Source: Candidatus Omnitrophota bacterium (GTDB lineage: Bacteria > Omnitrophota > Gorgyraeia > JAGLLT01). From it: a stretch of DNA of 64,000 bases. A program made the translations under genes and the position numbers. Below the pieces are notes generated by a model. It was not told where the DNA came from and searched no databases. It saw only the letters and a program-made list of their open reading frames with translations. Of this stretch, positions 4,763 to 56,881 are shown piece by piece (position 1 is the stretch's first letter; each line of letters opens with the position of its first letter). The stretch covers positions 24,295-88,294 of the forward strand of contig JAGLLT010000002.1 in the NCBI GenBank assembly GCA_023140385.1. Direction: 5' to 3'.

Positions 4763-4773
4763 TCATATAAAAG

Positions 4774-6303: not shown

Positions 6304-6337
6304 CTTTATAATTGTACAAATAAGCTAAGGGGAAAAA

Positions 6338-7432: not shown

Positions 7433-7446
7433 AGTGAAATAATGAA

Positions 7447-8430: not shown

Positions 8431-8436
8431 AATTAT

Positions 8437-11400
8437 ATGAATAGCAATATTGAAAAGAAAACCGATTTATTGCGGGATTTAGGTATAATTTTTTTATTAA
8501 GCCTTGTGCCCCTGATTTGGTTCAAAGGCGGAATAGCGGTGGCTGGTTCAGACGCTGTTTATCCGCTGTACAATCCCATCCAGTTTTATACAGCACGCTT
8601 TTTTATGTGGGATTCCCGCTATGGCGCCGGTATGCCATCTTCTATATACGCTACAAGTTTATTTTATTATTTGCCTCAGGTTATTTGCAATTTTTTCGGT
8701 ATGTCAGCAATCGCATCGCAAAAGATTCTTTTTGTTTTTTGGTTTTTTATGATGGGAGCGGCCATTTATTACATGGTTGCTGTTATTCAGGTAAAAGCGA
8801 ATCGCCTGCAAAGATTAATTGCTGTTTGTTTTTATACCTTTAATCCGCTGGTATTTAATATTTGGGAAGCGGGAAAAGCTGCCAATATTTCAGCTTATGT
8901 TGCTATGCCGGTAATATTAGCCTTTATAATTAAGGGATTAAGAAAAGATATAAGTTACTTTAAGGCTGCTATTTACATAGGACTATTTTCATTATTAGTG
9001 TCTGAAATGGGAGCCAGCCCTCCTATTTTTGCTATTCCTCTTTTGTTAATTACGTCTTACGCGATTTTCTATAGTATAAATAAACTGCTTTCAAAGAATG
9101 CGTTCAAAGACATAGGCAAAGCTATAAGCTTTTTTGTATTAATCATCTTGATTTTTGCGGGCCTAAACGCTTTTTGGTGGTTACCGTATTTGCGTGAAAT
9201 TTTTGTAAGGCTGATTGCCAGCGCGGAATCCGGGTTAGGGGCATTCAATTTGACTAACTGGCTTAAGGGTATAAGCACCCACACCTCTATTTTAAATGTT
9301 TCTCGTTTTCAGGGGGCGTGGGATTGGTACTATAATGCCAGAGATAATGTTCCTTATGTTCCTTATGCCAAAGTGTATTTTACTAATCCTTTTTTTATCT
9401 TTTGGAGCGTATTAATTCCCGCGACGGCTTATGCTGCGATTATTGTTAAAAAGAAATTTCATGAAGTTTTTTTTGTTGTTTTATGTGTAGTAGCCACGGT
9501 TTTAGGCTGCGGCGCTCATATGCCCACGGGTAAATTTTATTTGTGGATGACTGAAAATGTACCTTTTTTTCAGGTATTTAGAAGTCCGTACTATAAATTC
9601 GCGTTAATAATTTCCCTGGCATACGCGTATTTAATAAGTGTTACTTTGGCGTATGTGTATAAGAAAGTGAAAAACTCTTGCGAAAGAATCTTTTCGCGGC
9701 AAAAAAAGTATCTTATTAGGATAATACCCCCAACAGTAATAGTAATAATTTTATGCGGTAATTTTGTCTATAACTATCCAATGTTAAACGGACAGGTTAT
9801 TAGAATAAGAGAACCTGAAACATCTTTTTCTGTTGGCATAAAAGTTCCGGCTTATATAATTAATTTTGTCAAATACATGGATAGTCAAAAAAATGATTAT
9901 CGCGTTATCGCGTTGCCATCTTTACCGCTAAACGGATATAGATGGGGATATGTGGGGCCGCCGCATTTGCTCACCTTACTTTCATCAAGATCTATCCTGA
10001 GTGGTAGTGGTGGCGCTTCATATGCTGATAAGCTAAAAAATGTTTATTATAACGCGCTTTATGACAAAACTACACCATTAACTGCTCAAATATTAAAGGT
10101 TTTAAATGTAAAGTATATTTTAGTTCATAATGACGCCTGGTATGATTTCTTTAATTTCAAACTTTCTCCCGCTTTTCTGAAAAGTGCTTTATCTTATCAA
10201 GGAAAAATTGATTTATTAGGTAGTTTTGGAAAGTGGCAATTATATCAAAATCAGGATGATCCGGTTTATATTGGGGGAGCATTCGGTTTAGCTATGTTAG
10301 TCGGCGAGATGTCAGCTTTTGCTCCGTTAAGTTATATTAATGTTATGAATGACTTGCCCGTTATTTTATCCAGTCAAAAAATAAATCATGCTTTCATTAA
10401 AGAGGAACTTGATAGAGGAATTGAGAAAGTTTTCTTTTATAATGCTGATTTTTCTGATTTTGTATTTAATTTTATAGAGCCCGAACATAAAATTACTATA
10501 CTAAGTAACGATATACATAGTAATAACGGACTTATATTTAATTTTGAGGTAAGCATCGACGGTTTGTATCAAGTATGGATTGAACGGGATATATGCAGTA
10601 TATATAACCGCAATTTTAATGTAAAAATTGATGGACAAGCCGGGCAGGCCGGAAAGGATCTAATTCAGGACGATTTTTCTTTGAAATGGATTAACATCGC
10701 GAATTTTAATACAAAAAAAGGAAAACGCGTTATTGAACTAGGTTTAACCAATCAGGAAAAGAACTTGCTCGGAAATAAGGATATTAATTTAATTATATTG
10801 CCCAAATCTACTTTTGATACCTATAATGATTTATACCGTAATTTATTATTGACTTGCTTAAAAAGAAAAGGTAAAGGTTTGACATATTTTTTGTCATCAG
10901 AAAAAATGCAATCAGAGGTCAGATCCGAAGGTACTCAATGGAGCGGTGAATGCGATAGTCCAAAGTTAAGTAATGTTTTTAACTTTAAAAAAGATCCGGG
11001 AGAAGAGAAATGGAACTGGTTAATATTAGATAACGAAAAAACCATTAGTATAAGTAATAAAAGCAATGAAGAAGTTGTTACTAATGTTAAATTTGACGTA
11101 TTTTCATATGAAATAGATAGATATTTATATTACTATGTAAACGATATATATTTGTCAATGTGTTTTCTGCCGAAAGATAAGGCTCGTACAATAATTTTAA
11201 GGGGTATTAAATTAAAACCGGGTGATAATTATATTTCATTTTATTCTCCCGATAGAGGAAGTCGTAAATATGGAAGAAGTGTATCGTGCGCTTTTAAAGA
11301 TGTGGCTATAGGCAATGAATATTATAAAAGTGGCGTGTATATACCGAAATCGGGTGGTTACAATATTAGAATTTACCCTTATGATGACTTAGTTAGTGAA

Positions 11401-11952
11401 AACATTCAAACAAAGAATAAAAAGGTTTGTTTAGATGAAAAAGAAATATCATTTGGACTGAGAAATTTAAATGGTGTTAATTATTACGCGCATGAAAGCA
11501 TTTTTTTATCTGAAGGTTCGCATAATATTAACTTTAGGCAGATGAATATGGGTAAATGTTATCTTGAAATATCATCAAAAGTTAAGAATCAAGAATTTTT
11601 ACATCCTCTTAAGTACAAAAAAATTAATCAAACCAAATACAATGTTTCATGCGATAAAGATGAAATATCTTTTTTGTTTTTTCATGAAGCTTTTAACTCA
11701 CAATGGGAAGCACATATTATTAATCATGAATCAGGTAAAAAGTCTAAACTTAAACCCCATTTTATAATCGATGGCTACGCGAATGGATGGAAGGTTGACG
11801 GACCCGAGTATAAAAAAGGCTCAACTATAGTAATTAACTATAAGATACAAAACTTATTTTATTTAGGCCTATGTATTTCACTTGTTACTCTTGTTATATC
11901 TTTATCTTACCTATATTATAATTGCAAAAAGAAGGGACGTTGTAAAAAATGA
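8437..11952 (+). CDS. Giant (1171 aa) polytopic membrane protein, putative YfhO/GT-C-type extracytoplasmic glycosyltransferase (paralog family member 1)
   Basis: N-terminal ~13 TM helices with 'PLIWFK', 'SAIASQKILFVFWFF', 'NVSRFQGAWDWYY' and 'RSPYYKF'. A ~600-aa hydrophilic domain follows. The C-terminal 'FHEAFNSQWEA...DGYANGWKVDG' is followed by a final TM anchor. Four paralogs share these motifs. Confidence 0.55.
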   Translation: MNSNIEKKTDLLRDLGIIFLLSLVPLIWFKGGIAVAGSDAVYPLYNPIQFYTARFFMWDSRYGAGMPSSIYATSLFYYLPQVICNFFGMSAIASQKILFVFWFFMMGAAIYYMVAVIQVKANRLQRLIAVCFYTFNPLVFNIWEAGKAANISAYVAMPVILAFIIKGLRKDISYFKAAIYIGLFSLLVSEMGASPPIFAIPLLLITSYAIFYSINKLLSKNAFKDIGKAISFFVLIILIFAGLNAFWWLPYLREIFVRLIASAESGLGAFNLTNWLKGISTHTSILNVSRFQGAWDWYYNARDNVPYVPYAKVYFTNPFFIFWSVLIPATAYAAIIVKKKFHEVFFVVLCVVATVLGCGAHMPTGKFYLWMTENVPFFQVFRSPYYKFALIISLAYAYLISVTLAYVYKKVKNSCERIFSRQKKYLIRIIPPTVIVIILCGNFVYNYPMLNGQVIRIREPETSFSVGIKVPAYIINFVKYMDSQKNDYRVIALPSLPLNGYRWGYVGPPHLLTLLSSRSILSGSGGASYADKLKNVYYNALYDKTTPLTAQILKVLNVKYILVHNDAWYDFFNFKLSPAFLKSALSYQGKIDLLGSFGKWQLYQNQDDPVYIGGAFGLAMLVGEMSAFAPLSYINVMNDLPVILSSQKINHAFIKEELDRGIEKVFFYNADFSDFVFNFIEPEHKITILSNDIHSNNGLIFNFEVSIDGLYQVWIERDICSIYNRNFNVKIDGQAGQAGKDLIQDDFSLKWINIANFNTKKGKRVIELGLTNQEKNLLGNKDINLIILPKSTFDTYNDLYRNLLLTCLKRKGKGLTYFLSSEKMQSEVRSEGTQWSGECDSPKLSNVFNFKKDPGEEKWNWLILDNEKTISISNKSNEEVVTNVKFDVFSYEIDRYLYYYVNDIYLSMCFLPKDKARTIILRGIKLKPGDNYISFYSPDRGSRKYGRSVSCAFKDVAIGNEYYKSGVYIPKSGGYNIRIYPYDDLVSENIQTKNKKVCLDEKEISFGLRNLNGVNYYAHESIFLSEGSHNINFRQMNMGKCYLEISSKVKNQEFLHPLKYKKINQTKYNVSCDKDEISFLFFHEAFNSQWEAHIINHESGKKSKLKPHFIIDGYANGWKVDGPEYKKGSTIVINYKIQNLFYLGLCISLVTLVISLSYLYYNCKKKGRCKK

Positions 11953-13406
11953 AGATAATGATTTCATATCCGCCGATACCGAATGCTAAAGGAATACCTA
12001 TGCTTGGCCAGAACAGGCAGTTTCAATATTTTCACAATCCATCTTATATATACCCTATGGTACCCGCTTCCGCGGCTACTTTATTGCAGAGTCAAGGTTA
12101 TAAAGTTATCTGGAATGACTGTATTGCTAAAAGCATATCCTACGAACAGTTTATTGATATTTTTAAAAAGGAAAATTCCGATTTAATCGCGATTGAAACA
12201 AAGACACCGGTAGTAAAAAAGCATTACGCTATAGTAGATGAATTAAAAAAAATCAATCCAAAATGTATAGTTGTCCTGATGGGTGATCATATAACCGCGT
12301 TTCCGGATGAAGCTATGAACAGCTGTAGGGTTGATTACTGCATAACGGGTGGAGATTACGATTTTCTATTATTGAATATTTGCAAGTATATTGAAAATAA
12401 AAATTTACTTGAAAAGGGGATTTGGCATAGAGATGGAAAGCAAGTTGTTAATACAGGTAAATTTGAATTGAATCACGATTTGAATACATTACCCTTTATA
12501 GACAGGGAATTGACTCAGTGGAGTGATTATGGAGAGAAGCTTTATAAAGGAACCCCGTTTACCTATACAATGGTAGGCCGTGATTGCCCCTGGGCTAAAT
12601 GCACATTTTGTTCATGGACGACTCTTTTTCCGAAATTTAGGACACGTACTCCTAAAAGTCTTTTGGATGAAATTGGTTTTTTGATTGAACGTTACGGCAT
12701 AAAAGAGATATTTGATGATACCGGAACCTTTCCTTCGGGAAAATGGTTGGAAACTTTTGCTCAGGGTATGATTGAGAGAGGCTATAATAATAAAATATAT
12801 TTATCGTGTAATTTTAGATTTGATTATTTAACTCCGCAAAGAGCGGCACTAATGAAACAGGCGGGCTTTAGACTTATGAAGCTTGGGTTGGAGTCGGCGA
12901 GTGACGAAACTCTAAAACGCTTAAATAAAGGAAGCCGCGTTGATGATATAATAAATGGCTGCAAAATAGCCAAAAAAGCTGGCCTGACGGTTCATCTTAC
13001 TATGATGGTTGGCTATCCCTGGGAAACAAAGGAAGATATGTTAAAAACATTTAAATTAGCCAGGTATCTTATGCTAAACGGTTATGCCGATATGCTGCAG
13101 TCAACGACAGTAACAGCATATCCTGGTACTCCTTTATATGATCAGGCCTTGAAGAATGACTGGCTTAGGGTAGACCCGCGTGATTACGAAAGATTTGATA
13201 TGGGTGAGCCGGTATTCAAAAATCCAAATATCAAACCTGAAGAGATAACGCGAATTTGCAATCAAATATACAAGATTTTTTTGCATCCCAAATTTATATT
13301 TAATCATCTTAAAAAAGTTAGATCATTTGAAGATATTACCTATTTACTGAGAGGCGTAAAGCCGGTGCTGGGGCATATCAGAGATTTTATGAAAATAAGG
13401 AGATAA
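11949..13406 (+). CDS. B12-binding-domain radical SAM enzyme (class B), atypical Cx4Cx2C cluster motif
   Basis: N-terminal Rossmann-like B12-binding region ('YPMVPASAATLLQSQGYKVIWNDC'). The cluster motif is 'CPWAKCTFC'. The 'LGLESASDETL' region is radical SAM-like. There is a 4-nt overlap with the upstream giant gene. Confidence 0.75.
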   Translation: MKIMISYPPIPNAKGIPMLGQNRQFQYFHNPSYIYPMVPASAATLLQSQGYKVIWNDCIAKSISYEQFIDIFKKENSDLIAIETKTPVVKKHYAIVDELKKINPKCIVVLMGDHITAFPDEAMNSCRVDYCITGGDYDFLLLNICKYIENKNLLEKGIWHRDGKQVVNTGKFELNHDLNTLPFIDRELTQWSDYGEKLYKGTPFTYTMVGRDCPWAKCTFCSWTTLFPKFRTRTPKSLLDEIGFLIERYGIKEIFDDTGTFPSGKWLETFAQGMIERGYNNKIYLSCNFRFDYLTPQRAALMKQAGFRLMKLGLESASDETLKRLNKGSRVDDIINGCKIAKKAGLTVHLTMMVGYPWETKEDMLKTFKLARYLMLNGYADMLQSTTVTAYPGTPLYDQALKNDWLRVDPRDYERFDMGEPVFKNPNIKPEEITRICNQIYKIFLHPKFIFNHLKKVRSFEDITYLLRGVKPVLGHIRDFMKIRR

Positions 13407-13409
13407 TTT

Positions 13410-14102
13410 ATGCCGCGAATGAAATATTTGGATAATTTTGAAAAAACTGAACCCGACTTATTTCATAGTATTATCTTTGATTTTACTAAAGATCGCATAA
13501 AAGGTAAAAAAAGTTTAAATATCGGCTGTTGGACGGGAGGCTATGAGCAGATAGCAGATGAAAAAATAGATAATTTGTTTATGGCGAGTGTGGATATAGA
13601 TCATAAGGCTTTATGTACAGCCAAAGAAAATGTAAGAAATGTAAATTTTGTTGAAGCCGACACAGTAAGCTTACCGTTTAAAGATGAAACCTTTGATGTT
13701 GTTATGATGTTTTATGTAATTGAACACTTACCTTTAGAAAAAGAGAGAGAAATATTAAAGGAGATAAGTAGAGTAATTAAAACAGGCGGCGAATTTATAT
13801 GCGTAACCCATAATCATCAGTGGTTTGGCAATCTTTTTGATATTGCGTATTGGACGACAGGACATAGGCATTATAAAAAAAGTTATCTTGAAGAAATTTT
13901 AGAAAATTCAGGCATGAAAATTGACTTTTACGAACTGAGGGGAGGCATAATTTCTTCAATTTCTCCAATCTTTTTTTATCTCTTTAAGTACTGTTTTAAA
14001 AAAAACATATACAGGGATTCTAATTTTGTAAAAAGACTTTTAACTAATGAATTTAAGAAAAAAGGCTTTAGAGATATTTTTTTAATCGCGAAGAAAAAAT
14101 AA
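13410..14102 (+). CDS. Class I SAM-dependent methyltransferase
   Basis: 'LNIGCWTGGY' is motif I. 'FDVVMMFYVIEHL' and 'IKTGGEFICVTHN' follow. Confidence 0.8.
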   Translation: MPRMKYLDNFEKTEPDLFHSIIFDFTKDRIKGKKSLNIGCWTGGYEQIADEKIDNLFMASVDIDHKALCTAKENVRNVNFVEADTVSLPFKDETFDVVMMFYVIEHLPLEKEREILKEISRVIKTGGEFICVTHNHQWFGNLFDIAYWTTGHRHYKKSYLEEILENSGMKIDFYELRGGIISSISPIFFYLFKYCFKKNIYRDSNFVKRLLTNEFKKKGFRDIFLIAKKK

Positions 14103-14113
14103 AGGTTTAATTT

Positions 14114-15640
14114 ATGCTTAAAGATTATCTTATCGCGTTAGTTACCGCTTTGATCGGCCTATTTATACAAATAAGGCCCCGGCTTAGCAACCGGTATTTT
14201 GGTATTGATACATGGAGGCACTTATCGGTCGCTGACTATATAAGGAAGAATAAAAAATATCCAAAGTTAATGCCTGAACATTACCTTATTAATAAGCCTT
14301 CTGATTATCCTCCGTTTTTCCGTTTTTTATTAGCCTTGTTTCCAAAAAAAATGCTGGAAAAATATCAGTGGTTTGTTTCACCGCTCTTTGATTTCGCGCA
14401 CAATTTATTCCTTTTTAGTGTAGTTTATTGTTTTACGGGTAATTTTCTTATTTCGTTTTTTGCTCAAATAACCTATATGTTAAGTCCTATAGTTGTTATG
14501 GAAAATTCGAATCTGACAACTCGTTCCTTTGCTTCGCTGTTATTCAGCGGGTCTTTCTTTTCCCTTATCTGCTACACTACATTCGGAAATTATTTTTACT
14601 TGTTGATATCGGTTTTTCTCTTAACGATATTGTTATTGTCCCATCGGATGTCTATTCAGGCAATTTTTTTCCTTCTTGTAATTTTTTCACTAATTGAATA
14701 TAATTTCACATACATAGCCGTGTTAGCGGCTTCTATTATAATAGCCGCTCTTATCTCAAGAGGTTTTTATTTAAAAGTTCTTAAAGGGCACTTGGCTATG
14801 ATTAGATTCTGGTTCATGCATATTGATAATAGATACGCCCATCAGATAAGAGGATCTTTAGCAAAAGATCAAAAAAACCCCGATGCGGTCTTCAGAATAT
14901 ATCAGCTTGTCCAAAATATACCCTTCATAGCTGTTTTCGCCGCGAATCCTTTTATTATATTTGTTCTCGCGTATCTATATTTTGACAAAATCAAGTTTTA
15001 TAATTTAAATACATTCGGTATTCCGCAAATGCTATTTTCGAAATTTGTTATTTGGAGTATTTTGTTGTTTGTAATCGGTGTAATAGTCAGACAGATAAAA
15101 AAGTTAGGCTGTATTGGAGAAGGCGAGAGGTATCTGGAATATTCAGCGTTTCCCATAGCGATCGTTACGGCTGTATTTATTATAAATGGACTGACAAGAG
15201 GCCAATGGGGAATATTTTTAACGTTTTTGATTGTAGCTGTATTTGGAGCGCTGCTGCCAACGCTCTTTATACAACAGCAAGTTATAGTTAAAGATTCTAA
15301 GCGCTCTGTTAATAGCGATTTAAGAGGAATTTTCGATTATATAAATTGTATACAAGGTAAGGTGAACATTATGACGATACCTTTATATCTTGCTGATGCC
15401 GCGACATATTTTACTTCTGCCAGACTGCTTACAACCGACAATTCTATAGCCCACATAGTTGATTATAGCGATTTTTTTCCGGTTTTAAAAAAGCCCTTAA
15501 GTGAAGTTTTTAAAAGATATGATATAAATTATCTTTTTATTAATCAGGAGTATGTTAAACTATCTGAATTAAGTTTGCCTAAAAATAAAATAGTAAAAGA
15601 AAGTGGTTCCTATTGCTTAATTAAGGTACTATGTAAGTAG
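14114..15640 (+). CDS. Polytopic membrane protein, putative GT-C (ArnT/PMT_2-like) glycosyltransferase; paralog of 4774-6303
   Basis: Same architecture and motifs as 4774-6303 ('YFGIDTWRHLSVADYIRK...PSDYPPFF', 'AHQIRG', 'GEGERYLEYSAFP'). Confidence 0.5.
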   Translation: MLKDYLIALVTALIGLFIQIRPRLSNRYFGIDTWRHLSVADYIRKNKKYPKLMPEHYLINKPSDYPPFFRFLLALFPKKMLEKYQWFVSPLFDFAHNLFLFSVVYCFTGNFLISFFAQITYMLSPIVVMENSNLTTRSFASLLFSGSFFSLICYTTFGNYFYLLISVFLLTILLLSHRMSIQAIFFLLVIFSLIEYNFTYIAVLAASIIIAALISRGFYLKVLKGHLAMIRFWFMHIDNRYAHQIRGSLAKDQKNPDAVFRIYQLVQNIPFIAVFAANPFIIFVLAYLYFDKIKFYNLNTFGIPQMLFSKFVIWSILLFVIGVIVRQIKKLGCIGEGERYLEYSAFPIAIVTAVFIINGLTRGQWGIFLTFLIVAVFGALLPTLFIQQQVIVKDSKRSVNSDLRGIFDYINCIQGKVNIMTIPLYLADAATYFTSARLLTTDNSIAHIVDYSDFFPVLKKPLSEVFKRYDINYLFINQEYVKLSELSLPKNKIVKESGSYCLIKVLCK

Positions 15641-15672
15641 TTAAAATATAACAAGGCAGGCGGAGGAGTTAA

Positions 15673-16638
15673 ATGGCAAGAATATTGATTACAGGCGGAG
15701 CTGGTTTTTTAGGTTCATATTTGTGCGAAAAACTGTTAAAAAAAAGTAATAGTGTTATTGCCCTTGATATGTCAGACGGTTCAAAGGTAGAGCATCTTAT
15801 GGATAAGAAGGGTTTTCAATTCATTCAGGGCTCTGTTTTAGATAAAGACTTAATGGAAAGGGAGGTTTCTAAGGCAGATATGGTTTTTCATTTTGCGGCT
15901 ATTGCCGATCCAAAACGCTATATTCAGGAGCCATTAACCGTACTTGAGATAGATTTGCAGGCATCTTTAAATATTTTTAAAACGGCTGCCATGCATAAAA
16001 CAAAAGTTGTCTTTGCCTCAACCTCTGAATTATACGGGCGAAATCCCAATATACCCTGGAAAGAAGATGATGAGAGGGTTCTGGGTTCAACAGCTATAAA
16101 CAGATGGTGTTATTCTACGGCTAAGGCTGCTTCCGAGCATTACCTTTATGCTTACAATCAGCAAGAAGGTTTACCTTTTGTAGTGGTTAGGTTCTTTAAT
16201 GCTTACGGCCCCAGGTTGGATGATCTGGGCTCAGGACGTGTTATTCCTATATTCTTAAAGCAATTTTTAATGAATGAACCTATTACAATTCATGGAGACG
16301 GATCCCAGACCAGGACATTTATATATGTTGATGACGCGGTTGACGCGGTATTAAAAGTCGCGTTCTGTAAAAAGGCGGAGCAAGAAGCTTTTAATATTGG
16401 CTGTACGGATGAAATGTCCGTGTTAAATATTGCTAAGGTAATAAAAAAAGTAGGTAAATTTAATTCGAAATTCAAATTTATTCCGCATAAAAAAGTTTTT
16501 GGAAGTAAATATGAAGATATACCGCGAAGAGTGCCAAGCATAAATAAAATTAAAAGTTATTGCAATTGGCAGCCATCGACTTCTTTGGAAGACGGCTTAA
16601 TGAAGACTATTGAATATTATAGGAAAAAGGTTATTTAG
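15673..16638 (+). CDS. Extended SDR, ArnA C-terminal-domain/UXS-like UDP-glucuronate 4-oxidase/decarboxylase
   Basis: 'ILITGGAGFLGSYL' is the NAD motif. 'FHFAAIADPKRYIQEPL...VFASTSELYG' and 'RWCYSTAKAASE...RFFNAYGPRLDDL' closely parallel the ArnA dehydrogenase domain ('LVAIATPIEY...STSEVYG', 'RWIYSVSKQL...RPFNWMGPRLDNL'). Confidence 0.8.
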   Translation: MARILITGGAGFLGSYLCEKLLKKSNSVIALDMSDGSKVEHLMDKKGFQFIQGSVLDKDLMEREVSKADMVFHFAAIADPKRYIQEPLTVLEIDLQASLNIFKTAAMHKTKVVFASTSELYGRNPNIPWKEDDERVLGSTAINRWCYSTAKAASEHYLYAYNQQEGLPFVVVRFFNAYGPRLDDLGSGRVIPIFLKQFLMNEPITIHGDGSQTRTFIYVDDAVDAVLKVAFCKKAEQEAFNIGCTDEMSVLNIAKVIKKVGKFNSKFKFIPHKKVFGSKYEDIPRRVPSINKIKSYCNWQPSTSLEDGLMKTIEYYRKKVI

Positions 16639-16643
16639 GCGGC

Positions 16644-17654
16644 ATGAATATCGTCGAAATAGATAATTCAACTTTAAAAAAGCTCTCTCCGCTTTTAAAT
16701 AAATATAAGTTCAAAAATTTTTATAGTTGCGGGGAGATTTTGAACGAAGAGAAAGTAGATTATTTTCTGCGCAAGCTTTCAAAAATTAAAAAAAATGGCA
16801 GAATTATAGCCATAGAAATAAAAGATAAAATTCGAGCATTTGGGTGGATAGAACTTTCCGATTGGGACACCAGGCATTTTGGATTTAAAATGGCCAAGGC
16901 TGGTTTAGTTAGCCAATCGGGATATTCAGATGATAAGAAATATGCGTCTATTTTATTAAATGAAATAGAAATGTATTGTATTGGCCAACAAATAAAACAT
17001 ATTACTATACGTTTACCCTTAAATCAGATATCTTTGATACACGCGGCGGAGGAGAATGATTACTTATTAATGGCTCAAGCAAATGCTTATATCAAGAGTC
17101 TAAGGAATTATGCGATAGAAACTTGCAATTCAAGTATAAGGTTGAGATTTTGTCAGCCCGCAGATTTAAAAAAATTACGTGAAATTACAGAAAAGTCATT
17201 CCGGCCGCGAAGTGGATGGTTTGACAGGTTTCATAATGATCCCATGCTTTCAGATGAGAAAGCCGATCTTCTCTATAAAGAATGGATAAACAATTGCTAT
17301 AAAAATTATTTGAAAAAAGCGAATAATAAAATTATTGTTGCGACTTATAAAGCTAAAGTGGTTGGATATTTAAGCGGTGAATTAGATTCGGAAGCTACTA
17401 AGTCATTTGGGAAAAAAGTAGCATATATAACCTTAAATGCGGTTGATGAAGCATATCGCCGGCGTGGAATTTACGGTTTATTGGTTCAAGAAGTTCTTAA
17501 CTGGTTTAAGGAAAAAAATGTAGACTTAGTTCATATTCTTACTCAGAGCGGGACTATTGGAGTTCAAAAAGTATGGATAAAGCAAAAAGACGTATCTTCT
17601 GAAACGCAATGTGTCTATCATAAATATTTAGGAAAAACTAACCGAAAAATATAA
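16644..17654 (+). CDS. Putative GNAT-fold N-acyltransferase (duplicated domain), likely amino-sugar N-acetyltransferase
   Basis: C-terminal 'AYRRRGIYGLLVQEVLNWF' matches GNAT motif A (R/Q-x-x-G-x-G/A). At ~336 aa the protein could hold two acyl-CoA N-acyltransferase-like halves. Confidence 0.5.
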   Translation: MNIVEIDNSTLKKLSPLLNKYKFKNFYSCGEILNEEKVDYFLRKLSKIKKNGRIIAIEIKDKIRAFGWIELSDWDTRHFGFKMAKAGLVSQSGYSDDKKYASILLNEIEMYCIGQQIKHITIRLPLNQISLIHAAEENDYLLMAQANAYIKSLRNYAIETCNSSIRLRFCQPADLKKLREITEKSFRPRSGWFDRFHNDPMLSDEKADLLYKEWINNCYKNYLKKANNKIIVATYKAKVVGYLSGELDSEATKSFGKKVAYITLNAVDEAYRRRGIYGLLVQEVLNWFKEKNVDLVHILTQSGTIGVQKVWIKQKDVSSETQCVYHKYLGKTNRKI

Positions 17655-17716
17655 AGTTTATAACTGCAAAAGAAAAACCAGCCAAAATTGTAAAAATAGA
17701 AAATAGGGAGGCCTTT

Positions 17717-18664
17717 ATGACTAATAAACTTTATTTATCAGTGGTCATACCGGTATATAATGAGAAAGATAGCATTAGGCTGCTTTATGAGAAGTTGAAG
17801 AGTTCGCTATCAAATTTTAAGGATTACGAAATAATATTTATTGACGATGGCAGCAAAGATAACAGTTTTGAAGTAATAAAGCAAATAGCTATTAATGACA
17901 AAAGAGTAAAAGCTATTCAGCTAAAAAAGAATTTTGGCCAAACCATAGCTATTTCAGCCGGTTTTGATCATGCCGGAGGCAAAGTCATAGTTACTATGGA
18001 CGCGGATTTACAAAATGATCCGGAGGATATTCCAAAACTTATAACTAAATTGGAAGAGGGGTATGATGTTGTAAGTGGTTGGAGGAAAACTAGAAAAGAT
18101 CCGCTTAGTAAAAGAATGCCTTCCAGAGTAGCTAATAAAATTATTTCTTTAGTTACGGGAATTAAACTGCATGATTTTGGTTGTACATTAAAGGCGTATA
18201 GGAGTGAAATAATTAAAAATCTTAAGCTTTATGGAGAGATGCATAGATTCCTGCCGGCTTACGCGCAGTGGGCGGGAGCCAAAATCGCGGAAGTTGAAGT
18301 TAAACATCATCCTCGTTCATATGGACAAACAAAATATGGGCTTGCCAGAACCCCATCAGTAATTATCGATCTAATAACTACAAAGTTTTTAATCGCGTTT
18401 TCTACCAAGCCGAGTCATATTTTTGGTGCATTAGGCTTGATATTGATATTAACGGCAATGCTATTAAGTTTATTTATTACGATAAGGAAATTTTGTTTTG
18501 GCGGTGAATGGGTGAGTCCGCTTATATTTATTATAACCATATGCTTTATAACAGGAATTCAGTTCATCCTCATGGGGCTCTTGGGGGAGATATCCATTAG
18601 AACATATCATGAGTCTCAAAATAAATCTCCCTATTTAATTTCCCAATTTATTAATAAGGATTAA
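17717..18664 (+). CDS. GT2 polyprenyl-phosphate sugar synthase (GtrB/ArnC/CsbB-like) with C-terminal TM helices
   Basis: 'LSVVIPVYNEKDSI', 'IDDGSKDNS' and 'TMDADLQNDPEDI' are GT2 signatures. Two C-terminal TM helices are typical of the family. RBS 'agggagg' lies upstream. Confidence 0.85.
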   Translation: MTNKLYLSVVIPVYNEKDSIRLLYEKLKSSLSNFKDYEIIFIDDGSKDNSFEVIKQIAINDKRVKAIQLKKNFGQTIAISAGFDHAGGKVIVTMDADLQNDPEDIPKLITKLEEGYDVVSGWRKTRKDPLSKRMPSRVANKIISLVTGIKLHDFGCTLKAYRSEIIKNLKLYGEMHRFLPAYAQWAGAKIAEVEVKHHPRSYGQTKYGLARTPSVIIDLITTKFLIAFSTKPSHIFGALGLILILTAMLLSLFITIRKFCFGGEWVSPLIFIITICFITGIQFILMGLLGEISIRTYHESQNKSPYLISQFINKD

Positions 18665-18672
18665 ATAACACC

Positions 18673-20559
18673 ATGTGCGGAATTTCCGGTGTCGTTTATA
18701 GCCAGCCAAAAAGTCATTCAGATAAACAATTGCTAAAAAGCATGAGCGATTCCTTGTTGCATAGGGGGCCGGACGATGAAGGTATTTACGAGGATCAACT
18801 GGCAGGCTTATCTTTTAGAAGACTTAGCATAATTAGTTTAGATAATGGTCATCAGCCTCTTCATAATGAAGACGAAACTATCTGGGCAATATGTAACGGT
18901 GAAATTTATAATTATAGAGACCTGAAAAAAGATTTATCAAAAAGAAACCATAAATTTTATAGTGATTCAGATTGCGAAGTTATACCGCATTTATATGAAG
19001 AGTACGGAGAAAATTTCGTTGAGAAGTTAAACGGAATGTTTGCCCTGGCTATATGGGATAAGAAAGCTGGAAAATTAATTTTGGCCAGAGATAGAATGGG
19101 CCAAAAACCTCTTTATTACTCTTGTTTTAATGGGAAAATAATGTTCGCGTCTGAACTAAAAGCTTTGCTAAGATGCCCTGAAATCGGTAAGGAAATAAAT
19201 TTTGATTCATTGAATAAATATCTCACCTTTGAATATATACCAGCTCCAAATACCATATTTAAACAAATTAAGAAAATTTTGCCGGCTGAATTATTGATAT
19301 ATGAAAACGGCAGAATTAGTTTGAAAAATTACTGGCGGATTAATTACTCTTCAAAGAGTAAAATTTCAGAGCAAGAAGCTATCGTTGAAGTTAGAAGCAA
19401 ATTGATAGAAGCGGTAAGCAGAAGATTGATAAGCGACGCGCCCTTAGGCGCTTTTTTAAGCGGGGGTATAGATTCCGGTCTTATTGTTTCTTTGATGACG
19501 CAACTGAGTAATGAAAAAGTTAAATGTTTTAGTATTGGTTTTGATGAAAGGTCTTTTAATGAACTTGAATATGCCAAAATACTTTCAAAAAAGCTTAATG
19601 TTGAGCACTTGTACTTGAATATTAAAGCCAAAGATATGCTTGAATTGATACCGCAGATAACGTCCTTTCTGGATGAGCCGTTAGCTGACGCGTCAATCAT
19701 CCCCACGTATTTATTATCAAAATTTACCAGAAGACATGTCAAAGTGGCACTTTCAGGAGATGGGGGAGACGAATTATTCGCGGGCTATCCAACGTATAAC
19801 GCTCACAAGATAGCAAGATATTATAAACTTTGTCCTAAAAAAATTAGGAAGAACGTAATAGATAGATTGATAAATAAATTACCTGTTTCAACATCAAATA
19901 TAAGCCTGGATTTTAAACTCAAAAAGTTTATTTCAGTTATGGATTATGATCAGTATAAAAGGCACTATCTATGGTTGGGATCTTTTCAACCGCCGGAAAA
20001 AGATAAGCTGCTAAGCGATGGAGTAAAAAATGAGATAAATAATAAAAACGAATTTGAAGAAATTGATATGTATTTACGAGATTTCAAAAGCCCAAACCCA
20101 TTAGAAAATATTCTCTATCTGGATAGTAAATTGTATTTACAGGATGATATTTTAACAAAGGTTGATAGGGCAAGCATGGCCAACTCTTTAGAGGTTAGGT
20201 CACCATTCTTGGATCATACATTTGTTGAGTATGTAACTTCTTTACCTATGAGTTTGAAGTTAAAGGGCTACACCAATAAATATATATTAAAGAAAATGGC
20301 AGGGGAATATCTGCCAAAATGTATAATCAATAGGCCCAAAAAGGGATTTGGCCTTCCATTAGCTATGTGGTTCAAAAATGATTTAAAAAGTTTTGTATTA
20401 GATGTTTTAAGGCCGTCTAAAATTAATAGCCAAGGTTATTTTAACGCGAATTATGTACAGGAGTTACTAAACCAACACTTTAGCGGCAAAAAAGATAATC
20501 GTAAATTAATTTGGACATTGCTAGTTTTTCAGATGTGGTTTGATAAATACCTAAACTAA
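18673..20559 (+). CDS. Asparagine synthetase B-family glutamine amidotransferase (Ntn Cys2; PP-loop 'SGGIDS')
   Basis: N-terminal 'MCGISGV' is the Ntn nucleophile. 'FLSGGIDSGLIVSLM' is the ATP pyrophosphatase motif. Confidence 0.85.
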   Translation: MCGISGVVYSQPKSHSDKQLLKSMSDSLLHRGPDDEGIYEDQLAGLSFRRLSIISLDNGHQPLHNEDETIWAICNGEIYNYRDLKKDLSKRNHKFYSDSDCEVIPHLYEEYGENFVEKLNGMFALAIWDKKAGKLILARDRMGQKPLYYSCFNGKIMFASELKALLRCPEIGKEINFDSLNKYLTFEYIPAPNTIFKQIKKILPAELLIYENGRISLKNYWRINYSSKSKISEQEAIVEVRSKLIEAVSRRLISDAPLGAFLSGGIDSGLIVSLMTQLSNEKVKCFSIGFDERSFNELEYAKILSKKLNVEHLYLNIKAKDMLELIPQITSFLDEPLADASIIPTYLLSKFTRRHVKVALSGDGGDELFAGYPTYNAHKIARYYKLCPKKIRKNVIDRLINKLPVSTSNISLDFKLKKFISVMDYDQYKRHYLWLGSFQPPEKDKLLSDGVKNEINNKNEFEEIDMYLRDFKSPNPLENILYLDSKLYLQDDILTKVDRASMANSLEVRSPFLDHTFVEYVTSLPMSLKLKGYTNKYILKKMAGEYLPKCIINRPKKGFGLPLAMWFKNDLKSFVLDVLRPSKINSQGYFNANYVQELLNQHFSGKKDNRKLIWTLLVFQMWFDKYLN

Positions 20560-20570
20560 GAAAGGCAGAA

Positions 20571-21995
20571 TTGAAAGTAATTCTTATTAATCCTCCAAGA
20601 CTCCAAGAGAGGCCGTCTTTTTTGTCGGTACAGATGCCTCTTAACATTGCTTATATAGCGGCGTATTTAATACGCGGCGGTTTTGATGTTGAAATATGGG
20701 ATTTTGAAGTAGAGGAGTATAGTGATTCACTGTTAATTAAAAGGGTGGAGAATACCCAGCCATGTATTATTGGATTGAGCGCGTTCACCTCCACAGTATT
20801 ATGCGCCGATCGCTTAGCAGGGGTTGTAAAGAATAATTTTCCACACATTAGAATAGCTGTAGGCGGCGTTCATGTTTCCGCCTTGCCTCATCAAAGCTTA
20901 AAGGAGTTTGAAAGCTTTGATTGTGTAGTTGTCGGTGAAGGAGAGAGGACGTTTTTAGAGTTTTGTCAAAATACAAGAGACGGAAAGCCGGTTGATAATA
21001 TTGACGGTTTGCTTATTCGAGGTAAAGATGATTTTACCCCAAGAAAACCGATTGAGGATTTGGACGAATTGCCTTTTCCCGCAAGGGATTTGTTGAATCG
21101 TAAGCTATATACGGGGACCGTTCATAAGGGGTTTTCAAGGGATTATTTAAATATCTTAGAAGTTTTTACGGCGCGCGGTTGTCCTTATGAGTGCATATTT
21201 TGCGCTTCAAATGTAACCCTGGGACGCAAAGTGAGATTTAGAAGCATAAGCAATATTTGTGACGAAATTTCAGAAGAGATTAGAAAATGTAAGATAAATC
21301 ATGTGACATTTTTAGATGATACATTAACTCTCAAGCCGGAAAGAATAAAGAAGCTATGCGGATACTTAAAAAGTAACAACCTTACCTGGAACGCTACGGG
21401 CACGAGAGTTAATACCGTTACTAAAGAACTGCTTCAGGAGATGTCAGAATGCGGCTGCATAGGTATTGCTTTTGGCGTTGAGTCAGGGAGCCAGCGCATG
21501 CTTGATCTTATGAAGAAGGGGATTACTTTGAAACAAGTTAGGGATGCTTTTAAATGGGCCAAAGAGGCTAAAGTAAGAAGCATCGAGGCGGATTTTATAA
21601 TCGGCGCGCATCCTGATGAAACGGTTGAAGATTTAGAGTTAACGCGGAAACTTATAAAGGAATTGAAGCCTGATATTTTGTCGGTAGCCTACATTACGCC
21701 TTATCCAAAAACAGAGGTTAGCCGACTTATGAAAGAGAGAAACCTTATTGCGAATTCCAATGATTGGGGCAATTTCATGCTTTTTAGCAGCAAAAAGCCA
21801 TCTTGGAGAACTGTTAATTTTTCTTCCGATGATTTATTTAATACGCAAAGGCGCATGCTGAGAAACTACTATTACACTCCCGGTTACATTCTGAGAAAAA
21901 TAAGTAAAATGAAGAACTTAAATGAGTTTTTTTACTGGGCAAAATCAGCCATAGATTTTGCTAAGATAAGTATTTTTAGTTCTAATAGAAATTGA
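20571..21995 (+). CDS. B12-binding-domain radical SAM enzyme (class B)
   Basis: TTG start with RBS 'aaggcag'. N-terminal B12-like domain ('NIAYIAAYLIRGGFDVEIWD'). 'CPYECIFC' is the canonical CxxxCxxC motif. 'GVESGSQRML' follows. Confidence 0.8.
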   Translation: MKVILINPPRLQERPSFLSVQMPLNIAYIAAYLIRGGFDVEIWDFEVEEYSDSLLIKRVENTQPCIIGLSAFTSTVLCADRLAGVVKNNFPHIRIAVGGVHVSALPHQSLKEFESFDCVVVGEGERTFLEFCQNTRDGKPVDNIDGLLIRGKDDFTPRKPIEDLDELPFPARDLLNRKLYTGTVHKGFSRDYLNILEVFTARGCPYECIFCASNVTLGRKVRFRSISNICDEISEEIRKCKINHVTFLDDTLTLKPERIKKLCGYLKSNNLTWNATGTRVNTVTKELLQEMSECGCIGIAFGVESGSQRMLDLMKKGITLKQVRDAFKWAKEAKVRSIEADFIIGAHPDETVEDLELTRKLIKELKPDILSVAYITPYPKTEVSRLMKERNLIANSNDWGNFMLFSSKKPSWRTVNFSSDDLFNTQRRMLRNYYYTPGYILRKISKMKNLNEFFYWAKSAIDFAKISIFSSNRN

Positions 21996-22010
21996 AATCA
22001 ATATTTTAAA

Positions 22011-22742
22011 ATGGAAAAAAACCAGCGGCATTTAGAAGAAAAAGAGCATTTTCGAAGAAAGGCAGAGGCCTGCGGCCATTCTTGGTGGGGGCAGGCTACA
22101 ATAGCCGGCAGGGGACGCCTAAAAAGGAAGCAAAGAATTTTAAGTGATTTTTTAAAGAAAGGAAACTTAAAGACAGTTATACTGGAAATAGGCTGCGGCG
22201 CCGGAGAACTTACCTCGTCAGTTAAGAAGCATATACGGGTTGTGGGAATGGATCTCTCCCTGGATTTGCTTAGATTCGCAAAGGAAGCAAATAAGGGCGT
22301 TGAATATATTCAAGCAGACGCGTTAGCTATTCCATTTGAGGATCAGACATTTGATTTTGTTGTTGGTGATGGCATTCTTCATCATCTTGATCTGATAGCC
22401 GCTCTTAATGAAATCAAGAGAGTTTTAAAAGACAACGGCTCTATTTTATTTTTTGAGCCTAATATGCTTAATCCACAGATTTTTTTGGAAAGAAAGATTA
22501 GCTTTATTAGAAAGATTAACCAAACTCAGAATGAAACTGCTTTTTACAGGTGGAACCTCAAGAATATTTTGAAGCGGGATTGGCAAAATGCTGAAGTCAA
22601 GTCATTTGATTTTCTTCATCCTGCTACGCCTAAGTGTTTAATCTCGATAGTTGAATGTATCGGATTCGGGCTCGAGAAGGTGCCATTAATAAAAGAGTTT
22701 GCAGGTTCCATTTACATAGAAGCCGAGAAACGGAAAATATAG
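22011..22742 (+). CDS. Class I SAM-dependent methyltransferase
   Basis: 'LEIGCGAGEL' is motif I. 'FDFVVGDGILHHL' and 'LKDNGSILFFEPN' follow. Confidence 0.8.
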   Translation: MEKNQRHLEEKEHFRRKAEACGHSWWGQATIAGRGRLKRKQRILSDFLKKGNLKTVILEIGCGAGELTSSVKKHIRVVGMDLSLDLLRFAKEANKGVEYIQADALAIPFEDQTFDFVVGDGILHHLDLIAALNEIKRVLKDNGSILFFEPNMLNPQIFLERKISFIRKINQTQNETAFYRWNLKNILKRDWQNAEVKSFDFLHPATPKCLISIVECIGFGLEKVPLIKEFAGSIYIEAEKRKI

Positions 22743-25700: not shown

Positions 25701-25834
25701 AACATGATATAATAATATCTTATTTTCCGCAGAGACTTTTTATAATTTTAGCTTTGGTTTCATTATTGGCATGCCTTGGGTGTTTTTTTACATTATTTAT
25801 ATTGGGCAGGCGCTCTAAGTTTGCAAAAAGTTAA
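22754..25834 (+). CDS. Giant (~1026 aa) polytopic membrane protein, putative YfhO/GT-C-type glycosyltransferase (paralog family member 2)
   Basis: Motifs 'PLLWFK', 'SLIATQRIIFTFWF', 'NVMRLQADWSWYG', 'RSPYFKF' and C-terminal 'FNESYGAAWQLY...NGFSNGWYVDK' plus a terminal TM. The ORF track extends to 22655, but the ATG at 22754 (MLKRKK) avoids overlap with the upstream MT. Confidence 0.55.
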   Translation: MLKRKKLIYNFILIVFGLTPLLWFKPQMMLKTSDLRLPVSWEQWNNLLYVWNHTLAAGASRLLDTSLILFWTPSAILSKFGVSLIATQRIIFTFWFMLTAFCSYYMFRKLLTGKWRLLAALTATSFYLYNLWPESYWVGFKPPLVAGYAVLPVIIALIIATFNKEINYKKSAMYIALVSLVASSIGNNPSEFIGLIAPVVILFFYFFTRKKCWKEKKEFLFFAKFSGLTLLLFIICNSYWLGLQASMLWQNISSGVYASSVPTSLNWLRGISTQTSFLNVMRLQADWSWYGGCVDPYRSYSAFYRSNFIFLGLSYIAPLLACLGAIISKNKNKLYFIILGLIGIVLSMGAHFPFEGSYIWLVRNIPLFWIIRSPYFKFGLLICLAYSFLIGVACQKMCQWLERIKIYRAPYFFAAIIIIINITYAFPVSLGKMFHDEEIRSFLAADHVSVPDYVLDTANWLNSKEGFFRVYTVPGDSPWITSWNYVGYGSIIQNYIRMPVVFKYTSDYILYSQGAENQSRPIVEALEKSIFGQSNYDVAKMLALLNIKYVVQENDVRFDFYKGPGFVEGDSPEFMKNKLNSLKDIEFERSFGKWDVYKVNKEIPYIYSASKINLIVGKLNNLTPKLSSEFLDKPALLFTDKINDDHIELLKNNLVENLIINGNAESAARALENAREVLKKNSFQYLIHSSDIVPTLIDEPNIALNLEGFSKPEALFQNQTWRWITASNLEPNIILNNSTSENKYVNLKFLVYSYKRKRTLHLYLNEEALKIVYVPRDEATEVMIEGIKLKPGKNIIAHYSPDQCDVRNERKVRFALSDISFKGRKFTSKIIIPKDGNYLIRASWLMAPAARVSRLVAIDGKELKTSLNNDGKALVAPKSHLSKGTYNIEVKQSNQQDYYIEIIPISCQKGEIQIQPLEFTMINPTKYKINSSIKYPLIFFNESYGAAWQLYSKGADKNVYKHFETNGFSNGWYVDKSFEISDEHDIIISYFPQRLFIILALVSLLACLGCFFTLFILGRRSKFAKS

Positions 25835-35838: not shown

Positions 35839-35850
35839 GGAGGGTAAGCT

Positions 35851-37014: not shown

Positions 37015-37016
37015 GC

Positions 37017-51982: not shown

Positions 51983-52017
51983 TGAGGTCTGGCGGCAGAA
52001 CAGCCGCGGGAGGCCAT

Positions 52018-53427: not shown

Positions 53428-53516
53428 TCCAAAACTCCCTTTTTCTTAGGCTGACCATATTATAAATTACCACCCGCCCTTTGTCAATAAAAGAAAAAAA
53501 GAGGCGGATTTATTTT

Positions 53517-54606: not shown

Positions 54607-56881
<2,275 letters not shown>

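Follow-up and report, generated by a model that had tools for sequence, protein, structure and literature searches.

Class B radical SAM enzymes and methyltransferases as probable independent tailoring steps in a cell-surface glycan locus of Candidatus Omnitrophota

Introduction

The described systems that most resemble the cell-surface glycan locus reported here comprise (i) the biosynthesis of moenomycin, in which MoeF5 and MoeM5, together with MoeK5, tailor the first uronic acid, which is linked to lipid phosphoglycerate; (ii) the HpnI-HpnJ(-HpnK-HpnL) route to the hopanoid side chain of bacteriohopanetetrol cyclitol ether, in which a family 2 glycosyltransferase (GT2) is coupled to a class B (B12-binding) radical S-adenosylmethionine (SAM) enzyme that alters a lipid-linked sugar; (iii) the Arn pathway (ArnA, ArnB, ArnC and ArnT) and the mycobacterial AftD and Emb enzymes; and (iv) the aminoglycoside enzymes GenK and GenD1, which are C-methylases, and AprD4, a diol dehydratase. 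The locus lies in a 64,000-nucleotide stretch, hereafter the window, of contig JAGLLT010000002.1 from a Candidatus Omnitrophota metagenome-assembled genome (MAG), and contains two class B radical SAM genes (rSAM1 and rSAM2), each followed by a small class I SAM-dependent methyltransferase (MT) gene (MT1 and MT2), together with giant GT-C glycosyltransferase genes. The two pairs are probably independent, non-paralogous tailoring steps within this single locus of ~49 kb and not a duplicate centred on the giants.

Within class B, MoeK5 is a methylase (PMC12931638, PMC11214058) and MgmA a C-methylase (PMC11796369), several enzymes act on lipids (PMC13459092), and AprD4 displays a similar domain that binds no cobalamin (PMC12931638). 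Methylating and non-methylating members are not separable by sequence or fold, and the methylases Fom3 and MoeK5 cluster with HpnJ in similarity networks (PMC9204698, PMC12931638).

The window shares with moenomycin biosynthesis the presence of a class B radical SAM gene (rSAM2), an AsnB-type amidotransferase and a carbamoyltransferase in one locus, as does a related locus (L013), and the moe-like locus of S. clavuligerus has AsnB genes beside its B12-binding radical SAM gene; the differences are that rSAM2 is 26% identical to the MoeK5-like protein and that the setting in the window is surface-glycan rather than antibiotic biosynthesis. The likeness to HpnI-HpnJ comprises a GT2 partner for rSAM1, the position of HpnJ as the nearest of four references to rSAM1, and the presence of LPG_synthase_TM and deacetylase genes in some rSAM1 loci, whereas both window enzymes fall far under the HpnJ cut-off, the partner GT2 is MftF/AglG-like and not HpnI-like, and the rSAM1 family occurs in DPANN archaea and candidate phyla radiation (CPR) bacteria. 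As in the Arn pathway and the AftD/Emb systems, the window has an aminopentose-type branch, an ArnC-like GT2 and periplasmic GT-C enzymes; however, its matches lie under the equivalog cut-offs, a GNAT enzyme takes the place of the formyltransferase, and there are four giants and four further conserved genes. The aminoglycoside enzymes display the same architecture as rSAM1 and rSAM2, with a carbohydrate substrate plausible, although AprD4 differs in being cobalamin-free (PMC12931638) and its NCBIfam model reaches 96 bits against a cut-off of 500.

Two Radical SAM-Methyltransferase Pairs

All four genes lie on the forward strand where the original prediction had placed them from the open reading frames (ORFs): rSAM1 (485 amino acids, aa; 11949..13406), MT1 (230 aa; 13410..14102), rSAM2 (474 aa from a TTG start; 20571..21995) and MT2 (243 aa; 22011..22742), with giant1 just before rSAM1, whose start it overlaps by 4 nt, and giant2 just after MT2. 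MT1 begins 3 nt past the end of rSAM1, and an AsnB-type amidotransferase gene lies 11 nt upstream of rSAM2; the start of the latter at 20571 is supported by homologues that span 98-100% of the long form. The predicted domains were likewise found in Pfam: rSAM1 comprises a B12-binding domain (PF02310, 37.7 bits; cut-off 32.1) and a radical SAM core (Radical_SAM, PF04055, 75 bits), rSAM2 comprises the same two domains (74.6 and 76 bits, respectively), and MT1 and MT2 are small class I enzymes that match Methyltransf_11/25/23 (Methyltransf_11 at 3e-17 and 2e-21), MT1 matching no specific NCBIfam family. No transmembrane helices are predicted in the four proteins, except for one hydrophobic stretch in MT2.

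The view of these genes as one duplicated cassette did not withstand comparison. rSAM1 and rSAM2 are 24% identical, and they are not duplicates of each other because their mutual score is 85 bits, against 129 bits between rSAM1 and HpnJ and 130 bits between rSAM2 and BchE. MT1 and MT2 align with 30% identity over 112 aa, and their 51 bits barely exceed the 28-42 bits that either gives with the remaining three class I MTs. Two giant paralogues had been counted; the window contains four.

The radical SAM gene, the MT and the giant had further been proposed to form a conserved unit, with loss of their adjacency in relatives named as decisive against it, and this adjacency is not kept. In L009 (fetched loci are numbered with the prefix L), with rSAM1 73% identical, the order is double GT2, rSAM1, MT1 and a DegT-type gene with no adjacent giant, and the giants of this genome lie in an array of their own (L179) elsewhere on that 489-kb contig. 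L018 (rSAM1 69% identical) displays giant1, rSAM1 and a 508-aa membrane protein with no MT, and L017 (rSAM1 74% identical, fully syntenic) displays AsnB, a 198-aa class I MT, MT2 and giant2 with rSAM2 absent. Around rSAM2 orthologues, L178 (57% identical) has a GT1 downstream and no MT, and in L177 (Omnitrophota GCA_043825275.1, 48% identical) there is again no MT beside the six radical SAM genes, which are interspersed with GT2s and of which five encode a B12-binding domain. Together with L013 and L180, these loci disclose all pairwise separations of radical SAM gene, MT and giant.

Across 166 fetched loci, a class I MT adjoins a B12-binding radical SAM gene for 15 of 201 genes, against 14.7±3.0 in within-locus shuffles, and no MT family is found among the 25 commonest Pfam families of the 64 downstream neighbours of rSAM1 orthologues that were unmatched to window proteins. 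An MT1 orthologue directly follows rSAM1 only in L009/L010 and L017; an MT2 orthologue follows rSAM2 in L013 and stands ahead of giant2 in L017, where rSAM2 is absent. What had looked like a duplicated cassette is a chance arrangement of genes in a single lineage. The radical SAM-MT-giant model is largely refuted by the non-conserved adjacency and, there being no duplicated unit, it is therefore not to be carried forward as a new functional unit. The general idea of the original prediction does stand, namely that a glycan assembled by means of giant GT-C enzymes is served by tailoring enzymes that use SAM in the cytoplasm. A role for the adjacent MT in re-methylating the cobalamin of the radical SAM enzyme was dropped as a candidate, the MT being missing from most family loci.

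rSAM1 and Its GT2 Partner

rSAM1 is a member of an old, distinct and tightly conserved class B radical SAM family, as yet uncharacterised. The best 120 relatives listed are 59-87% identical, and several candidate phyla are represented in their source names. In a genome scan, bacterial and archaeal members were recovered at 40-74% identity; full-length orthologues reach 60-74%, and those of Archaea and CPR bacteria 40-54%. The family is marked by (i) a noncanonical cluster motif, CX4CX2C (C213-X4-C218-X2-C221), invariant in 42 members, and (ii) an invariant loop at residues 15-37 of the B12-binding domain, between the first strand and helix, with G15, P17, L19, Q21-N22-R23-Q24, Q26, F28-H29, P31 and Y35-P36-M37 invariant and low model confidence in this region. 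The AlphaFold2 model of rSAM1 (pLDDT 87) aligns over its full length with MgmA, TsrM, OxsB, CysS and TokK; AprD4 is also a fold neighbour and gives the best TM-score (0.72-0.76), with MgmA an equally close structural neighbour.

The partner of rSAM1 is a fused double GT2 of 574 aa (3038..4762, forward strand). Its residues 1-248 resemble a small GT2 of the window, GT2_a (112-882), at 35% identity, and residues ~255-566, the conserved partner proper, match MftF and AglG best in NCBIfam, under cut-off. A homologue of this protein lies directly upstream of rSAM1 in 28 of 83 loci and at position -2 in 9 more, GT2_a homologues occur at most five genes away from rSAM1 orthologues in 24 of the 83, and adjacency of rSAM1 to any GT2 was observed 32 times compared with 18.4±3.3 in shuffled loci, and none of 2000 shuffles attained the observed count. 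In Omnitrophota, Actinomycetota, Lentisphaerae, Gemmatimonas and Latescibacterota, it is the fused form that stands ahead of rSAM1, and CPR bacteria and DPANN archaea display a split form in which the small GT2, the partner GT2 and rSAM1 are separate adjacent genes. L009 preserves the uninterrupted order of fused GT2 and rSAM1; in the window and L017, four or five genes, giant1 among them, appear from the gene order to have been inserted as a block between the two.

In 11-13 loci of Woese-, Pace- and Nanoarchaeota, the GT2-rSAM1 genes stand beside AglB/STT3, a WecA-like GT4 and LPG_synthase_TM, often with a polysaccharide deacetylase and a second, MoeK5-like B12-binding radical SAM gene. L074 (Pacearchaeota, 3868-14630) comprises AglB/STT3, WecA-like GT4, LPG_synthase_TM, GT2, rSAM1, polysaccharide deacetylase, small GT2 and the MoeK5-like gene, an order that is similar in 10-12 more DPANN loci and that sets two class B radical SAM genes within an archaeal N-glycosylation locus. 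No description of B12-binding radical SAM/GT2 modules in glycan loci or in Omnitrophota was found in the searchable literature, and the GT2-rSAM1 module, which is conserved in both prokaryotic domains, is undescribed as far as that literature shows.

The locus as a whole is an ordinary, though exotic, glycan locus, and the GT2-rSAM1 module is the one point in it worth following: a very strongly conserved class B family with a real genomic partner, the GT2, and present in DPANN archaea within N-glycosylation loci. A tentative and on balance doubtful proposal is that rSAM1 and its GT2 partner, often with a second ArnC/AglJ-like GT2, install a radical-derived change on a lipid-linked sugar destined for surface or N-linked glycans; such a change might yield a C-methyl branch or a carbocycle of the HpnJ/calditol kind. 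If this proposal is true, many uncultured lineages (Omnitrophota, CPR, DPANN, Latescibacterota and Bathyarchaeia) would bear a cobalamin-dependent, chemically unusual surface sugar. The module offers a concrete target of two or three genes for a new radical sugar modification, and it raises the possibility that microbes which are uncultured, and often symbiotic, depend on cobalamin to build their cell surface.

Two further settings of the module were observed. In L011 and L012 (Latescibacterota and relatives), the GT2 and rSAM1 form an isolated two-gene operon outside glycan loci, with SMP-30/gluconolactonase-like (SGL) genes nearby in both. In L075, from the cultured Desulfosarcina cetonica JCM 12296, a small GT2, the partner GT2 and rSAM1 are followed by a cytidylyltransferase-like gene and, further downstream, by AsnB, an MT and a second B12-binding radical SAM gene; this strain is the most practical organism for genetics on GT2-rSAM1.

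rSAM2 and Its Gene Context

rSAM2 belongs to a second class B family, looser than that of rSAM1; its homologues at 40-65% identity are mostly from Omnitrophota and Patescibacteria. In the metagenome scan, identity fell fast to 31-35%, mostly among distant paralogues outside the orthologous family, and few neighbourhoods were informative. The cluster motif is the canonical CX3CX2C, starting at C204. The gene context comprises, in the window, the AsnB-type amidotransferase, rSAM2, MT2 and giant2 and, in L013 (rSAM2 65% identical), AsnB, a carbamoyltransferase, two small genes, rSAM2 and MT2, with the AsnB orthologue 3.4 kb upstream. The 198-aa class I MT of L017 (19098-19694) lies between the AsnB and MT2 orthologues, in the slot of rSAM2; this exchange may reflect variation of a serotype-like kind or the functional replacement of one methylating enzyme by another.

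Separately, five or six radical SAM genes, which mostly encode a B12-binding domain, lie among the GT2s of each of the glycan loci L177 and L098; L177 also contains Wzy_C, a WecA-like GT4 and a GT9. The presence of more than one class B radical SAM gene in a glycan locus seems common in Omnitrophota.

Proposed Pathway and Chemistry

In the pathway we favour, sugars would be tailored on the cytoplasmic side by enzymes that are soluble and presumably cytoplasmic, as nucleotide sugars or polyprenyl-phosphate-linked sugars, then flipped and added to the growing periplasmic glycan by the GT-C paralogues, so that the SAM-dependent steps would precede flipping. rSAM1 would work with the fused GT2 (3038-4762): the GT2 would attach a sugar to a lipid-linked acceptor, and rSAM1 would modify an unactivated carbon of this sugar by a radical mechanism. 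The ancestral order would have placed rSAM1 directly downstream of the fused GT2, as still seen in L009. MT1 would act as an ordinary O- or N-methyltransferase, restricted to this lineage, and rSAM2 would act in a uronic-acid branch with the amidotransferase and the carbamoyltransferase, in the manner of the moenomycin trio MoeF5, MoeM5 and MoeK5. The tailored sugars most likely pass to the four AftD-like GT-C paralogues while bound to polyprenyl phosphate as carrier.

The chemistry of the two radical SAM enzymes is not readable from their sequences. Reference HpnJ, HpnR, BchE and MoeK5-like proteins were recovered from annotated plasmids, the MoeK5-like protein being taken from the S. clavuligerus megaplasmid by its moenomycin-type gene order (epimerase, AsnB, 411-aa protein, AsnB-like, B12-binding radical SAM). 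Against these four, rSAM1 is nearest to HpnJ (129 bits by BLAST), with the MoeK5-like protein at 106 bits and HpnR the weakest, and three rSAM1-family members all match HpnJ best (129, 129 and 119 bits); rSAM2 gives 130 bits with BchE and 116 bits with both HpnR and the MoeK5-like protein. The original prediction had taken membership of class B to imply methylation, a step that proved unsafe, the best profile matches being to the non-methylases HpnJ and BchE, far under cut-off. The subfamily assignment by hidden Markov models that it had proposed was carried out and placed these non-methylases on top, yet no NCBIfam cut-off was reached, and for both reasons the assignment is uninformative. The BchE model (TIGR02026) gives 133 bits for rSAM1 without reaching its cut-off of 481, and the HpnR model gives 57 bits for rSAM1 and 115 bits for rSAM2 against a cut-off of 650; several methylase models, at 115-143 bits, come close behind the top matches of rSAM2. 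In Protein Data Bank (PDB) sequence and fold searches, the nearest solved structures are the methylase MgmA and the diol dehydratase AprD4, and because these are about equally close, the searches give no functional discrimination. Bacteriochlorophyll and aminoglycoside genes are both absent from the window, and no hopanoid genes (shc, hpnH, hpnI, hpnK) occur among the ~60 window genes scanned.

C-methylation of a sugar is plausible for both enzymes and no firmer than a reasonable guess, since non-methylases are held by the reviews not to be distinguishable from methylases. For rSAM1, C-methylation is a real possibility that falls somewhat short of an even chance, and an HpnJ-like rearrangement or another non-methylating reaction comes close to one; a rearrangement of the sugar installed by the GT2 is at least as likely as C-methylation. 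For rSAM2, C-methylation is the most likely reaction, standing at about an even chance, and is somewhat better supported by the exchange for a class I MT in L017 and by the AsnB/carbamoyltransferase context. The analogy with moenomycin is drawn from gene context only, because rSAM2 is not specifically closer to the MoeK5-like protein.

Several points weigh against the favoured pathway. Both radical SAM enzymes fall under every NCBIfam cut-off, the top match being HpnJ (TIGR03471) at 162.6 bits for rSAM1 and 165.6 bits for rSAM2 against 577.6, with BchE at 153 bits against 481 for rSAM2, and rSAM2 is no nearer to the MoeK5-like protein (116 bits) than to BchE or HpnR. In the window, the partner GT2 lies 7 kb from rSAM1, and no GT2 adjoins the radical SAM gene in a clade of rSAM1 relatives at ~50% identity (L023-L056, Myxococcota and deltaproteobacterial MAGs), where the neighbours are other or unidentified genes. 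The window contains no cobalamin riboswitch, by an Rfam scan, and no cob or btu genes. That the substrates are lipid-linked is inferred from the types of GT2 and the DPANN context, and the ORFs of the 166 fetched loci were called mechanically and labelled by jackhmmer, a procedure that is noisy for high-GC contigs.

Alternative Explanations

A possibility with some weight, although short of probable, is that one or both radical SAM enzymes, most strongly rSAM1, are non-methylating class B members that catalyse, for example, the contraction of a lipid-linked (amino)hexose ring to a carbocycle in the manner of HpnJ and calditol synthase, a dehydration or deoxygenation like that of AprD4, an epimerisation or an oxidation. 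HpnJ is the best profile match for both enzymes, and the best of four references for three rSAM1-family members, but at 163 and 166 bits against a cut-off of 578, and the methylases Fom3 and MoeK5 cluster with HpnJ as well (PMC9204698); the reviews hold non-methylases to be indistinguishable (PMC9204698, PMC12931638). The coupling of GT2 and radical SAM enzyme mirrors HpnI-HpnJ, and yet the partner GT2 resembles MftF and AglG, with HpnI not among its listed matches. LPG_synthase_TM and the polysaccharide deacetylase of the DPANN loci parallel HpnL and HpnK, and an LPG-synthase-domain gene lies ~1.2 kb upstream of hpnJ in Caballeronia too, whereas the window holds neither a deacetylase nor an LPG_synthase gene. 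In structure, the best TM-score of AprD4 to the rSAM1 model is set against the methylase MgmA, which is equally close.

The model of the original prediction, a duplicated radical SAM-MT cassette bound to each giant that would make doubly (C- and O/N-) methylated sugars, is very unlikely. Both radical SAM genes of the window do precede an MT and touch a giant, the MT part having a chance of p ~0.016 by arithmetic for this locus (5 MTs in 37 genes, random order), but the low identities within each supposed pair of copies speak against duplication. Likewise, the order rSAM1-MT1 recurs in L009 and L017, that of rSAM2-MT2 in L013, and a third, unrelated pair of B12-binding radical SAM gene and MT is found ~6 kb upstream of the giants in L180; against these recurrences stand the pair without an adjacent giant in L009, giant1 and rSAM1 without an MT in L018, MT2 and giant2 without rSAM2 in L017, the absence of an MT from L177 and L178, and the lack of enrichment of MTs next to B12-binding radical SAM genes. 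The giants co-vary instead with a 327-aa MT and a carbamoyltransferase, and the rSAM1 family lives without giants outside this Omnitrophota clade (giant nearby in 2 of 83 loci). Highly improbable, too, is the modification of a lipid, either the polyprenyl carrier or a membrane lipid chain, in the manner of Gmm, HpnP/HpnR and ladderane-type enzymes. CPR and DPANN organisms, in which the rSAM1 family occurs, have little lipid biosynthesis, and the identifiable neighbours of the radical SAM genes are mostly glycosyltransferases and sugar-nucleotide enzymes, with no lipid-synthesis genes seen beside them. The ladderane-type NCBIfam model does score 97 and 104 bits, but HpnR is the weakest reference for rSAM1. 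Several class B enzymes do act on lipids (PMC13459092), and a DPANN rSAM2-like protein is MoeK5-like at 198 bits, as reported for Gmm, the methylase of glycerol monoalkyl glycerol tetraethers (PMC11214058).

Giant GT-C Genes and Their Companions

The four giants lie on the forward strand and comprise giant1 (1171 aa, 8437..11952), giant2 (22754..25834, 1026 aa from the called start), giant3 (27608..30712) and giant4 (30687..33815). Public gene calls start giant2 at 22754, compared with the first ATG of its ORF at 22655. The four proteins are 27-32% identical pairwise, giant2 being 29-32% identical to giant1 in both halves; giants 2-4 are assigned by paralogy, their own Pfam matches, including a weak GT-C_AftD match of giant4, being sub-threshold.

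giant1 is named a DUF3367 protein by NCBI and passes the threshold of GT-C_AftD (PF11847; 27.4 bits, cut-off 26). Its ~10 N-terminal transmembrane helices, the first loop of which bears an invariant aspartate, D39, are followed by a soluble, extracytoplasmic domain of ~600 aa and one C-terminal anchor helix. A sequence search of the PDB returned nothing for giant1, and a fold search was needed: the AlphaFold2 model (pLDDT 85) matches AftD best in Foldseek (6w98, E 1e-23, TM-score 0.44-0.50), by far ahead of STT3 oligosaccharyltransferases. The giants are thus AftD-like GT-C enzymes by the Pfam threshold, the transmembrane layout, the invariant aspartate and the fold match of giant1, which bears out the GT-C-like part of the original description. 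The YfhO-like part fell away, no match to the YfhO Pfam family being found for giants 1-3 at E<=0.01 or for giant4 at E<=0.001, and GT-C_AftD and a weak DUF6541 are the only Pfam matches of the giants. Genes of the decaprenyl-phosphate arabinose pathway were not seen in the window.

The steadiest neighbours of the giants are other than rSAM1 and rSAM2. A Methyltransf_23 class I MT of 327 aa with an N-terminal extension of ~120 residues (7447..8430, forward strand, Pfam), which lay outside the cassettes of the original prediction, is of a type that adjoins the giant1-type gene in 4 of 4 genomes examined (window, L017, L179 and L180), and is a steadier companion of the giants than either radical SAM gene. 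A NodU/CmcH-type carbamoyltransferase (25956..27608, forward strand; Carbam_trans_N and Carbam_trans_C in Pfam) has orthologues adjoining giants in L179 (84% identical) and L180 (58%), and the L179 orthologues of giant3 and giant4 are 71% and 58% identical. giant4 is followed by four forward-strand genes (33812..38798) of 367, 308, 387 and 593 aa with 6, 1, 2 and 10 predicted transmembrane helices, respectively; they have no Pfam matches in the window proteins, keep the same order in L179 and L180, and are probably part of the giant GT-C machinery. The orthologues of the third gene in L179 and L180 (384-395 aa) carry DUF3352.

Seen from the giants, the conserved block comprises the carbamoyltransferase, the giants, the Methyltransf_23 protein of ~320 aa, giant4 and the four genes, with no radical SAM gene; its equivalent in the window spans 25956-38798 plus 7447-11952. 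Only 29 relatives of the giants were found among 5.8 billion proteins, a further point against a tie between the rSAM1 family and the giants. The four AftD-like giants with the 327-aa MT, the carbamoyltransferase and the four genes make up a rare, Omnitrophota-restricted block for periplasmic glycan assembly.

Remaining Genes and Layout of the Locus

Between the two radical SAM-MT pairs, a conserved block of four genes on the forward strand comprises (i) a polytopic membrane protein of 508 aa with ~11 transmembrane helices and no family match (14114..15640, transmembrane scan), which adjoins or neighbours rSAM1 in L009, L017 and L018; (ii) an SDR-type sugar enzyme resembling UDP-GlcA decarboxylase/UDP-4-keto-pentose synthase, the C-terminal domain of ArnA (15673..16638; NCBIfam PRK11908, 220.9 bits against a cut-off of 294, and ArnA, 188 bits); (iii) a WecD-like GNAT N-acyltransferase (16644..17654; Pfam Acetyltransf_1), with dTDP-4-amino-4,6-dideoxygalactose acyltransferase as best NCBIfam match at 43 bits, under cut-off; and (iv) an ArnC/GtrB-type GT2 (17717..18664; NCBIfam ArnC, 244 bits against a cut-off of 529, and PgfS, 187 bits), a candidate polyprenyl-phosphate sugar synthase with C-terminal transmembrane helices, a hydropathy scan giving three hydrophobic segments close to the C-terminus. 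Further upstream on this strand lies a DegT/ArnB/PseC-type sugar aminotransferase (6338..7432; Pfam DegT_DnrJ_EryC1, 2e-119), with PseC at 309 bits and an ArnB-type model at 266 bits in NCBIfam, both under cut-off. To judge from these matches, the Arn-like module (15673-18664 plus 6338-7432) probably supplies the GT-C giants with an N-acyl aminopentose donor linked to polyprenyl phosphate; the Arn-like block is kept in L009 and L017.

Downstream of this block, the AsnB-type glutamine amidotransferase (18673..20559, forward strand; Pfam Asn_synthase, 1e-102) scores 617 bits with the XrtA/PEP-CTERM amidotransferase model of NCBIfam, against a cut-off of 817, and is a candidate for uronic-acid amidation. 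At the other end of the locus, also on the forward strand, GT2_a (112..882; Pfam Glycos_transf_2, 5e-35) resembles polyprenyl-phosphate sugar synthases of the ArnC/PgfS/AglJ type, its best NCBIfam matches being PgfS, ArnC, AglJ and PpgS, all under cut-off, and a polytopic membrane protein of 509 aa (4774..6303; ~8 transmembrane helices by hydropathy scan) is kept in L017 and has no Pfam or NCBIfam matches.

Positions 1 to ~49,350 of the window form the single, modular and co-directional glycan-biosynthesis locus, with 37 genes that include the two class B radical SAM enzymes, five class I MTs, the AsnB-type amidotransferase, the carbamoyltransferase, the Arn-like branch and the four AftD-like GT-C enzymes. 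Promoter and terminator scans of the window gave results no better than shuffle level. The window proteins are identical to NCBI MCK5305547-82, and the same DNA is also present on several ENA metagenome scaffolds. The genes downstream of the locus are housekeeping ones (uracil-DNA glycosylase, PriA, Fmt, GAPDH/PGK/TPI, SecG and Opp). The G+C content (GC) is 30-38% over most of the glycan locus, climbs to ~40% at 40-44 kb and is higher still, at 41-45%, in the adjoining housekeeping genes (49350-64000), a step that may mark a horizontally exchanged or hypervariable surface-glycan island.

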